Origin: a virus
Taxonomy: Duplodnaviria; Heunggongvirae; Uroviricota; Caudoviricetes
Direction: 5' to 3' (one strand)
IMG/VR virus record: IMGVR_UViG_2627853701_000001
Length of the DNA: 22,394 nt
The first letter of the stretch is position 1. Every line of letters begins with the position of its first letter. Below are positions 5,509 through 8,500 of the stretch, in pieces. A program made the position numbers.

Positions 5509-8500
5509 CAATAAGATCCTCTTTAAAGGAAAATACTGAGACTGTAGAAATGAACAGTAAAGTTTGGGGGAGGCTGAAAAAGATAATCACTTTCTTTAAA
5601 AAGTGATTTATGTTTCTGTAAAAAGCCCGTAGGTATCAACTGCGGGCTAAATTTTCCCTTGATGCTGGTTTTGTCTTTTATCTAAAAAATGCCAGTCTTC
5701 ACGTTGCTTGTTCCAGCATTAAAGATGTATGTGCTGACTTTTTCGCCTTTGAAAGAAACTGTCAGAGATTTAGTTTGTGAGTCTGCGCCACCTGCAAGCA
5801 GTCCCACAACGGGGATGAAAGAGGTTGCTTTGGACTGGCTGTTATACATAGTGTATGACCATTGTTCTTCACCATCGATCAAAGAACGGCTGTCAGGTTC
5901 ACCGAACGATGCTAACACGTCCTGTTTTGTAGTTTTGCCTTTAACAATTTTGGTTTTCACACTTTCCTGCGTCTCATTTTTCAATGACTGGTTGCCTACT
6001 GAAGAACAACCTGCCAAGGTCAGAAAAACGAATCTATATGAGAGTTTTTTGTACCTGAGACTAAATCGCCCTCCCAATGCCCTAGAGAGCGTCTGTTATC
6101 GATATTTCGGGAACGTTCGTGAATTGGTGTTCCGTTCACTATGTTAATCGTACCTCTTTCGCCTTTGCGGGTATGACGCCTGCCATGGCGAAGGCTATGC
6201 GACCGTCGCAGATGCTGTATATTCAGGTGGTGTAGCGCTTCACGGCTACGAAAGTACAGCGTTTTATAAATTGTCTCAGGTGATATTCGCAGCGTTTTTT
6301 GACGTGGTTTTGTTCGCCTTAACCATCCTGATATTTGCTCTGGAGACCATTTCATCTCCAGCTTTTCCAGAACAAGCTTTCGCAATGGTAAATTTTGATC
6401 CAGTAAGCACGGTTTTGGCCTTTTCGCCATTCTGTTGGCTCGGTTATTAGCATCAACAGCTTTGTAATAGCGTCTGCCCCGATTACGCTGAACTTCACGT
6501 GAGATCGTCGAAGGACTGCGATTCAGCGCAGTAGCTATCGCACGAATGCTCATTTTGGCTGACAAACCAGCTCGTATCTCCTCGCGCTCAGACAGTGTCA
6601 GGTGAGCTACAGCCCGCTTACGCTCATGGGGTTTTATGCCGCCAGTATCCCTTAACATAGTGAAGATCGTTCCGGGTTTTGAACCCAGGATATTCGCTAT
6701 TTCACTGAAGCCTGTTCCGTTCTTCCATAGTTCAAAAACAGAGGCTTTTTCCTCTGCTGTAAATGTTCGTCTCATTCAAAAAACCTCCGCAACCCCATGT
6801 TTTCACATAACTGTTGCGTTGACCAATTGAATCTACAGTGGTCTGTTTTAATATTTCTATTTCTATTTCTATTTCTATTTCTATTTCTATTTCTATTTCT
6901 ATTTCTATTTGTTGTGATTTTTTCTTTAGTTCATGTATTTCGATTTGTTTCTGAATTATCGGGGGTAGTGTCTTCCCTTTTCCCTGAGGCTTATCATGCA
7001 GTTATTTTCGCCATCTTGGTATTGTGGAAATACCGACATCCATAGCTTTGGTGAGCTCTGTTCAGGTGGCCAAATTCAGAAAACCATTACGGAGGAAGAA
7101 GGCGATGGCTAAACCAGCGCGAAGACGATGTAACCGTAAAAGAGAAGATTTAACTGTTAAAAGGATATTTGAGTTACTAAGTTTCGATAAATCTACCGGG
7201 GTATTTAGATGGAAAGTTCCCACTCAGGGAAGGATAGCATTAAATAGTGTTGCTGGAGCTTTTGATTCCAACGGTTATTCAATGATCATGATAGATGGGC
7301 GTAGATATAAAACTCACGTCTTAGTTTTTTACATAACTCATAATCGTTGGCCTGCTGGTCAAATTGACCACGTTAATGGAATTAGGACCGACAATAGGCC
7401 AGAAAATTTAAGAGAATGCCTGCCAATAGAAAATTCAAGAAATATAAGGATCCGAAAGAATAGCAAATCAGGTTGCAGAGGGGTTACTTGGCACAAACGA
7501 CAGAAAAAATGGAATGTTAGGCTAGGATTCCATGGCAAGAGTAAACACTTCGGATGCTTTGATGATCTGGAGTTAGCGGTACTAGTTGCTGAAGAAGCCC
7601 GAGATAAGTATTACGGTGATTTTTCCGGCAACGAAAGGAGCACTTATGCGAATCTATCGAAGGAAATGTAAATGTTGCAATGAATGGTTTATACCAAAAT
7701 ATCAAAATCAATATTGGTGTAATGAGATTTGTGGAACCAAGATAGCACTCGAACGACGAAGTAAAGAACGCGAAAAAGCGGAAAAGGCAGAAAAGGCAGC
7801 AGAGAAGAAACGACGACGAGAGGAGCAGAAACAGAAAGATAAACTTAAGATTCAAAAACTCGCCTTAAAGCCCCGCAGTTACTGGATTAAACAAGCCCAA
7901 CAAGCCGTACACGCCTTCATCAGAGAAAGAGACCGCGACTTACCATGTATCTCGTGCGGAACGCTCACGTCTGCTCAGTGGGATGCCGGACATTACCGGA
8001 CAACTGCTGCGGCACCTCAACTCCGATTTGATGAACGCAATATTCACAAGCAATGCGTGGTGTGCAACCAGCACAAAAGCGGAAATCTCGTTCCGTATCG
8101 CGTCGAACTGATTAGCCGCATCGGGCAGGAAGCAGTAGAGGAAATCGAATCAAACCATAACCGCTATCGCTGGACTGTCGAAGAGTGCAGGGCCATCAAG
8201 GCGGAGTATCAACAGAAACTTAAAAAACTGCGAAACAGCAGAAGTGAGGTTGCATGAATATCTACGAAAGAATTGATGGCAGCAAATACCGAAATATTTG
8301 GGTAGTTGGCGATCTGCACGGATGCTACACGAACCTGATGAAAAAACTGGAGACGATAGGATTCGACACCAAAAAAGACCTGCTTATCTCGGTGGGCGAT
8401 TTGGTTGATCGCGGTACAGAGAACGTAGAATGCCTGGAATTAATCACATTCCCCTGGTTCAGAGCTGTACGTGGAAACCATGAGCAAATGATGATTGATG

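Follow-up and report, generated by a model that had tools for sequence, protein, structure and literature searches.

How does a gene for an HNH endonuclease come to begin with the first codons of a phage recombination gene, and how is the gene that has lost them restored? The question is raised by a DNA stretch of 22,394 nt assigned to the Caudoviricetes (IMG/VR record IMGVR_UViG_2627853701_000001; the whole stretch is called the window here, and coordinates refer to it), in which an HNH open reading frame (ORF) precedes ninG (rap). The window matches a decayed lambdoid prophage of Escherichia coli O157:H7. Its part 7000–7800 is 100% identical to E. coli O157:H7 EC4115 and many other O157:H7 genomes, and the RefSeq labels of the two genes in O157:H7 are ‘HNH endonuclease’ and ‘recombination protein NinG’. 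A first reading of the window (the sequence-only reading) had proposed that a homing-endonuclease gene inserted at the very 5′ end of ninG, captured its start and ribosome-binding site and left ninG with a replacement start. As judged by the comparisons described below, the segment 7134–7729 is probably a free-standing HNH-AP2 homing-endonuclease gene cassette within the ninG 5′ end. The structural part of this prediction (capture of the start, restart borne by the cassette, position of the junctions) is essentially certain from the alignments; the homing part is plausible and predicted only.

Architecture of the ninG 5′ end and its two products

The HNH ORF (188 aa, 7105–7671, + strand) begins MAKPARRRCNRKRED at ATG 7105 (opening also given as MAKPARRRCNRKREDLTVKRIFELLSFDKSTGVFRWK) and stops at 7671. 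When compared by blastn with annotated ninF-ninG loci, positions 7092–7133 matched the ninF-end/ninG-start of phages 2B8 and 434 at the syntenic position (42 nt, 95%, E = 2e-14). The matched nucleotides cover the last ninF bases, ninG codons 1–9 and two bases of codon 10. The opening ‘MAKPARRRC’, noticed in the sequence-only reading as the N-terminus of lambda NinG, is thus homologous to it at the DNA level, and lambda records match the locus in the same two pieces as the other lambdoid phages. Homology to 2B8 is back at 7730 and runs to 8300 (98.8% over 571 nt by blastn), covering the remaining ninG; phage 434 matches over this part as well. It had been suggested that alignment with phages carrying an uninterrupted ninG would locate the junctions. 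This alignment places them at 7133/7134, behind ninG codon 9, and at 7729/7730.

Between these junctions, 596 nt of foreign sequence (7134–7729, + strand) stand in place of 64 nt of lambda-type ninG (codons 10–32). A foreign gene does lie at the 5′ end of ninG, as proposed, but by replacement and not by pure insertion. Likewise, the span of 7024–7700 given for it earlier does hold the HNH ORF, but the start is ATG 7105 and the foreign segment goes past 7700. Among 50,697 phage records searched by megablast with 6780–8260, only two, the Stx1-converting phages SH2026Stx1 and AU6Stx1, carry the whole arrangement; hundreds of lambdoid phages (lambda, 434, 21, HK and mEp phages, SfI, 2B8) match it as two separate pieces.

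The 42 nt at 7092–7133 (+ strand) form an island of ancestral ninF-end/ninG-start sequence, with a Shine-Dalgarno sequence GGAGGA (7091–7096), ATG 7105, the nine ninG codons and the two bases of the tenth. The island directly continues a full ninF in 21 viral contigs and in E. coli MS 196-1. Beyond what the earlier reading had noticed, ninF is also lost in the window, where a 38-aa ORF of unassigned origin (6996–7112, + strand; annotated as a hypothetical protein in SH2026Stx1, no PHROG match) is found instead. This ORF is a chimera of a novel body with final codons and a stop (~7089–7112, EEEGDG*) derived from the ninF 3′ end (EEEDDG*). Its TAA stop (7110–7112) overlaps the HNH start, reproducing the ninF-stop/ninG-start overlap of uninterrupted phages.

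The HNH ORF therefore keeps the Shine-Dalgarno sequence and ATG of ninG together with the overlap with the upstream stop codon, and the proposed capture of the ninG start and ribosome-binding site is borne out. In loci with an intact ninF, the frame upstream of the ATG is closed by a stop at a distance of 13 codons and offers no start codon on the way, and downstream no further in-frame start comes before codon 60; a full-length HNH protein can thus be initiated there from the ninG ATG alone.

The cassette itself is composed of the HNH body, a new Shine-Dalgarno sequence and start, and 28 diverged ninG codons. The AAGGAG motif noticed earlier was confirmed at 7635–7640 (+ strand, read from the sequence), within the HNH coding sequence and 5 nt before ATG 7646. 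From this ATG, ninG restarts as a complete chimeric gene of 203 aa (7646–8257, + strand; Pfam NinG, PF05766, 271.5 bits, 5e-81, profile positions 5–192 of 193), overlapping the HNH ORF by 26 nt in a different frame. It joins a replacement 5′ end (codons 1–28, 7646–7729, + strand), counterpart of lambda-type codons 1–31, to the lambda-type remainder matched by blastn to 2B8 (7730–8257, + strand). The variant and lambda-type 5′ ends share 57% DNA identity (codon-aligned, 7646–7741), and the variant keeps the Cys-rich N-terminal NinG motif CKCC...F.P....Q.WC...C; many distant NinG homologues share a similar two-residue Cys spacing (CKxC). The GC content is 29% in the variant 5′ end and 39% in the HNH body (7134–7645), against 50% in the replaced lambda-type 64 nt and 49% in the rest of ninG (7730–8257).

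Since ninG codons 1–10 are now present twice, the locus carries an imperfect 14-nt direct repeat (11/14 identical). Its left member, CGAAGACGATGTAA (7120–7133, + strand), is the lambda-type copy of ninG codons 6–10. The right member, CGAAGGAAATGTAA (7658–7671, + strand), represents the same codons in the cassette-borne copy and contains the HNH stop TAA (7669–7671); both were read from the sequence. Lambda ninF-ninG DNA without the cassette runs from CGAAGACGATGTAA directly into AAACGATGAATGTCGGGAATGG.

The conserved part of the HNH protein, an HNH_3 and AP2-like body, spans residues ~16–175 and is flanked by nine ninG-derived residues and by a tail of ~11 residues reading through the new ninG start in the other frame. 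The assignment to HNH endonucleases made in the earlier reading is supported by Pfam HNH_3 (PF13392; 42.7 bits for a cut-off of 24.8, residues 68–107) and by a match to PHROG 99 ‘HNH endonuclease’ (6.6e-71). Homologues were searched by tblastn against phages and among 5.8 billion protein clusters. They share at most 47% identity (38–47% in T5-, T7- and Jersey-like phages) and align from residue ~16 only. With one exception of 232 aa, they are 152–176 aa long and miss the first 10–15 residues, their N-termini starting 0–10 residues ahead of the conserved L..YD..TG.F.W motif. As judged by these alignments, the first nine HNH residues are foreign to the endonuclease family. The ~11 surplus C-terminal residues are encoded where the new ninG ribosome-binding site and start sit. 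In the AlphaFold model (mean predicted local distance difference test score, pLDDT, of 81), confidence is good except at residues 5–12 and 178–188, the two borrowed ends, where values fall below 50 and disorder is predicted. Residues D88, H89, N101 and N110, putatively the catalytic ones of the HNH family, are invariant in 13 aligned sequences (11 distinct homologues).

In Jersey-, T5- and T7-like phages and in metagenomes, the homologues occur as free-standing HNH genes. Among the nearest diverged ones, P0004 (44% identity) lies on a T7-like contig after endonuclease I and P0006 on a short contig, neither with a link to ninG. On the former contig, from a JGI metagenome (L190, 1033–1927), the gene directly follows that of the T7-type endonuclease I, a Holliday-junction resolvase. 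An HNH-AP2 gene thus adjoins a junction-resolving nuclease there, as it does at ninG; this may be coincidence.

Distribution, left contexts and diversity of the cassette

The 596 nt were found in 537 of 5,426 complete E. coli genomes, at 570 places and up to three times per genome. All 537 records cover at least 80% of the segment, and identity is at least 99% in 535 of them. An uninterrupted lambda-type ninF-ninG junction occurs in 805 E. coli genomes, so that one fixed site is polymorphic for presence and absence (537 occupied versus 805 empty). The cassette junctions are the same in all copies examined, about 57 viral contigs having been compared at single-base level, and identical in 55 aligned copies. 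The cassette is thus shown to be one nearly invariant unit with identical junctions on many phage backgrounds, and occupied and empty sites both exist. Wherever the variant ninG 5′ end occurred in the same 5,426 genomes, the HNH gene accompanied it. As judged by this linkage, the ‘fresh’ ninG start belongs to a diverged, AT-rich piece of ninG, 84 nt long, that is never parted from the HNH gene. On the viral side, 60 IMG/VR loci encode a relative of the HNH protein, 57 of them at full length with 98–100% amino-acid identity, one further locus retaining the first 31 residues only at a contig end (L064). Among the matches listed, one HNH gene is truncated on its 3′ side (H184); a fragment of 104 aa (P0003) came out of the protein search.

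Two left contexts were distinguished. Class A, to which the window belongs, has the 38-aa ORF and a TTTCTA repeat on its upstream side and accounts for about 507 of the 537 E. coli genomes, the context being 100% identical in O157:H7 genomes. In class B, a complete ninF leads straight into the fused ATG (21 IMG/VR loci and 30 complete E. coli genomes), and the annotated gene order in the class B strain MS 196-1 is ninB-ninE-ninF-HNH-ninG-ninH. By these alignments, class B represents the original state, and the class A loci, the window among them, have since had ninF replaced up to ~7089, which left the 42-nt island.

The run of TTTCTA hexamers lies at 6850–6915 (GC ~19–26%). The matches of SH2026Stx1 and AU6Stx1 end there and class A loci diverge nearby, and the run looks like a mosaic breakpoint. 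In RusA-type lambdoid prophages without ninG (L067, E. coli EA7, 2575–2859; L069, 2575–2787), other small ORFs come after ninF and start at the same overlapping position. One of them carries the annotation of a NUMOD4-domain protein, NUMOD4 being a DNA-binding module of homing endonucleases. Landing or recombination may thus recur at the 3′ boundary of ninF.

Nucleotide diversity (pi) of the cassette is 0.002–0.005, about 10 times below that of its flanks (0.017–0.10 in the adjoining ninG and 0.01–0.085 in ninF). Within the HNH ORF, 11 of 23 single-nucleotide polymorphisms are synonymous, versus 21% expected by chance (P = 0.004), which indicates that the ORF is under purifying selection. A frameshift was found in one of the 55 aligned copies (T deleted at 7325).

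E. coli MS 196-1 (L068, NZ_CP146681.1; identical to viral contig L054), which carries the cassette, was compared with viral contig L126, which does not. Their flanks show no substitution (1,079 nt on the left side, 1,410 nt on the right), the sole difference at the ninG site being the 596 nt versus the 64 nt. As the cassette allele no longer has the 64 nt, a switch in either direction needs recombination with a phage of the other type. Flanking alleles are diverse in the population, and the exchanged tract must therefore have been short and centred on the cassette.

A second indel of ~660 nt separates the same two sequences (L068 866–1525) and holds another gene of the HNH-AP2 family, absent from L126. 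Located after an upstream gene and ahead of a terminator-like hairpin that precedes ninB, it forms a single long frame in which no ATG stands out; RefSeq divides it into ‘HNH partial’ and ‘AP2 domain protein’. Two endonuclease-type indels thus separate L068 from L126.

Homing and other explanations

Several features speak to the kind of element. The diverged 84-nt ninG segment, found with the HNH gene in every case, corresponds to flanking target-gene sequence travelling with it. Intron RNA was looked for, with no Rfam match at E up to 1. An intein-type read-through is not possible because the HNH ORF ends in a stop and ninG restarts in another frame. Transposon features were equally missing from the cassette: no terminal inverted repeats, no target-site duplication, nothing significant in a direct-repeat scan and no transposase. 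A promoter-like site or terminator of its own was not found for the cassette either, and HNH expression would thus depend on nin operon read-through and on the translational coupling inherited from ninG.

These sequences are most simply read as a joint arrival of the HNH gene and ninG codons 1–28 from an AT-rich donor whose own ninG was immediately preceded by the HNH gene. An endonuclease gene standing just upstream of a diverged ninG in such a phage would have been copied into a lambda-type phage. The right end would have been repaired by homology within ninG, from 7730, and the left end joined illegitimately at codon 10, fortuitously in frame, as in ‘one-sided’ homing. The putative target of the enzyme is the lambda-type ninG 5′ region, where it would probably cut, and repair from a cassette-bearing phage or a co-resident prophage would then copy the cassette in. 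The diverged 84 nt may both destroy the recognition site, conferring self-immunity, and keep NinG function. Because they preserve NinG, the element would cost the phage little.

We propose more tentatively a stronger version, which we hold possible but somewhat doubtful. The cassette may be a currently active homing endonuclease of lambdoid and Shiga-toxin prophages, cutting the lambda-type ninG 5′ end and carrying a cleavage-resistant substitute start. It would be made only upon post-induction nin expression via ninF coupling and would drive directional conversion between co-induced prophages of enterohaemorrhagic E. coli (EHEC) upstream of Q/stx.

A number of observations weigh against the homing prediction. 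The AP2 half of the ‘HNH/AP2’ assignment made earlier falls below the profile cut-off (PF00847, 22.1 bits versus 33.3). The fold search gave no PDB match at E ≤ 0.001. The best match of the model, which speaks for the enzyme family, is the HNH homing endonuclease I-HmuI (1u3e; probability 0.99), though with a weak E of 1.9e-3 and a template modelling (TM) score of 0.37. The AP2-like part superposes on the AtERF1 and TEM1 AP2 domains at 1.3–1.7 Å over ~50 residues (probability 1.0) with a weak E of ~0.12; plant and apicomplexan AP2 domains are also among the best PDB matches, again with weak E-values, and a sequence search of solved structures gave one sub-threshold AP2 match and nothing else. 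The donor phage was not found in tblastn, protein-cluster, HMMER and genome-contig searches, and among the 5.8 billion protein clusters no HNH relative lies between 47% and 98% identity. The best phage match to the variant NinG N-terminus is 61% identical by tblastn; a word-indexed search of the protein clusters returned E. coli fragments of the same allele only. Exhaustive HMMER over 1.84 billion representatives gave P0026 as the best N-terminal relative (64% over 25 residues), with no HNH Pfam gene called beside it. A genome-contig scan gave only a planctomycete match at 39%.

Population data also count on this side. Some O157:H7 chromosomes hold an occupied and an empty lambda-type site together, the latter unconverted (e.g. 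NZ_CP028644.1 and NZ_AP026108.1). This shows that no conversion is ongoing in lysogens, which is expected if the nin genes are silent there; it lends no support to activity. Much of the E. coli count is probably due to clonal over-sampling of O157:H7. In the 3′ part of ninG, divergence between loci with and without the cassette equals the diversity within each group. A co-conversion gradient was considered and dropped: diversity climbs along ninG away from the cassette, but it does likewise in 96 cassette-free loci.

These population data fit an explanation in which a single illegitimate recombination event gave rise to the HNH-ninG 5′ segment, which has since spread or persisted as a passive mosaic module through ordinary lambdoid homologous recombination, its nuclease being inactive at ninG or directed at another target. 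Lambdoid phages are highly mosaic and the flanks of the cassette site are equally shuffled in cassette-free and cassette-bearing loci; frequent homologous recombination could put one young module on many backgrounds, the occupied and empty sites within the same chromosomes are as expected, and over-sampling of class A may inflate the apparent spread. However, an inactive passenger fits poorly with an ORF under purifying selection whose catalytic-motif positions are invariant. Moreover, the isogenic pair differs at ninG only by the cassette amid diverse flanking alleles, implying very short conversion tracts centred there, and the cassette-borne ninG segment is heavily diverged exactly where resident sequence was removed, the usual signature of target-site immunity. 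We consider passive spread unlikely, though it is the most serious competitor of homing.

Purifying selection, with mostly intact copies (one frameshift among 55), would equally be expected of a domesticated nuclease, kept for the benefit of the phage in, for example, marker exclusion of competing lambdoid phages or recombination together with NinG. The position in the nin recombination operon, right before the gene of a junction-resolving nuclease, and the presence in the Stx1-converting SH2026Stx1 and AU6Stx1 agree with such a role. Marker exclusion, however, is the same biochemical act as homing and is indistinguishable from it here, and the HNH homologues occupy unrelated positions in unrelated lytic phages, as is typical of selfish endonuclease genes; domestication therefore seems improbable to us. 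Finally, ‘MAKPARRRC’ could be a chance resemblance, the HNH gene having a native start and ninG never having been interrupted. The in-frame GTG 7024 does extend the ORF in the window, and one gene caller took it as the start (P0002, 215 aa), but this GTG is present in this left context only. Coincidence is refuted by the syntenic 42-nt DNA match, continuous with a full ninF in class B, by the class B stop 13 codons upstream with no start codon between, by the 64 nt of ninG missing exactly between the junctions, and by homologues that lack the first residues. The homing cassette thus stays our preferred prediction.

Relation to known systems and neighbouring features

The seg and mob genes of T-even phages are free-standing homing endonucleases engaged in ‘intronless homing’ (PMC2988022). 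The cassette resembles them in several respects: an HNH gene outside any intron or intein lies beside a conserved phage gene, is polymorphic for presence and absence among related phages, belongs to a polycistronic transcript with no promoter of its own and travels with flanking target-gene sequence. In contrast, the T4 genes are intergenic with their own start codons, while the ORF at ninG is fused to the start and nine codons of the invaded gene. In addition, the host at the ninG site is a temperate lambdoid phage or prophage, and the activity of the endonuclease is a predicted one.

T4 offers established examples of free-standing endonucleases, of co-conversion and of one-sided illegitimate repair of double-strand breaks at microhomologies (PMC2988022). 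The allele at ninG is similar in having one junction made by homology and the other non-homologous or at microhomology, and one-sided repair would explain both the in-frame illegitimate left junction and the partial duplication of the target 5′ end. The original one-sided homing paper is reportedly that of Parker, Belisle and Belfort in 1999. One-sided homing in T4 was experimental and involved an intron-encoded enzyme, whereas at ninG it is proposed only as the origin of a natural allele.

In Aeromonas phage Aeh1, a mobE insertion splits nrdA (PMC3045599). A free-standing HNH gene reportedly lies there inside a coding gene, as at ninG, and the host product is still functional via element-associated sequence. 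The split nrdA is said to yield two polypeptides that reassemble. At ninG, by contrast, only nine codons are given to the nuclease and the product is restored as one polypeptide with a substitute N-terminus.

The actinophage ShiLan carries a ‘hidden’ out-of-frame HNH insertion in a methylase gene (PMC11855218). In both cases an HNH gene lies within a phage coding gene, the reading frames overlap, and the insert closes with a stop codon. In ShiLan, however, the host gene reads through the insert in frame as an extra loop and the nuclease starts from an internal GTG, whereas ninG restarts and the nuclease uses the host start. In ICP1 vibriophages, nuclease genes are located at boundaries of genetic exchange (PMC10448857), and they mark sharp recombination boundaries between otherwise related phages, as here; but ICP1 phages are lytic, and start-codon capture is not described as far as the abstract goes. 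The HNH_3/AP2 endonucleases of T5-, T7- and Jersey-like phages belong to the same family but have neither the ninG-derived N-terminus nor the C-terminal read-through tail.

Although both genes are routinely annotated, no description of an HNH-ninG arrangement of this kind was found in the full-text literature searched. As far as the accounts consulted go, what would be new here relative to the four compared systems is an endonuclease whose translation begins at the start codon of the very gene it invaded, the 5′ end of that gene being replaced by one that the cassette brings.

Knowledge of free-standing homing endonucleases comes largely from lytic T4-like phages, temperate lambdoid phages having received far less study. 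The cassette illustrates how a gene can land in a coding gene without killing it, by borrowing its start signals and bringing a substitute 5′ end. EHEC prophages commonly carry it, Stx1-converting phages have it too, and Q and stx follow within a few kilobases downstream; an active enzyme would make the cassette promote directional recombination between co-resident prophages. Since empty target sites exist in phage lambda, the hypothesis is open to standard lambda genetics; if true, it would provide a tractable natural homing system there and a homing gene that repairs the invaded gene with a replacement 5′ end. For annotation, the first nine residues of the ‘HNH endonuclease’ and the N-terminus of the chimeric NinG should both be seen as products of the cassette event.

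The remainder of the window contains further features. Two tyrosine recombinase genes are located at its start. An ORF of 452 aa (4248–5606, + strand), a hypothetical protein in EC4115, encodes a very long Glu-Pro dipeptide repeat (~5250–5510), and its sole Pfam match is a sub-threshold one to the trypanosome procyclin repeat. The nin remnant is directly preceded by a truncated IS30-family transposase (helix-turn-helix domains only; a RefSeq pseudogene without the C-terminus), which stands beside a BamE-domain lipoprotein gene (6020–6775 and 5682–6077, both − strand). IS66 and IS3 fragments lie downstream, and the prophage is heavily decayed.

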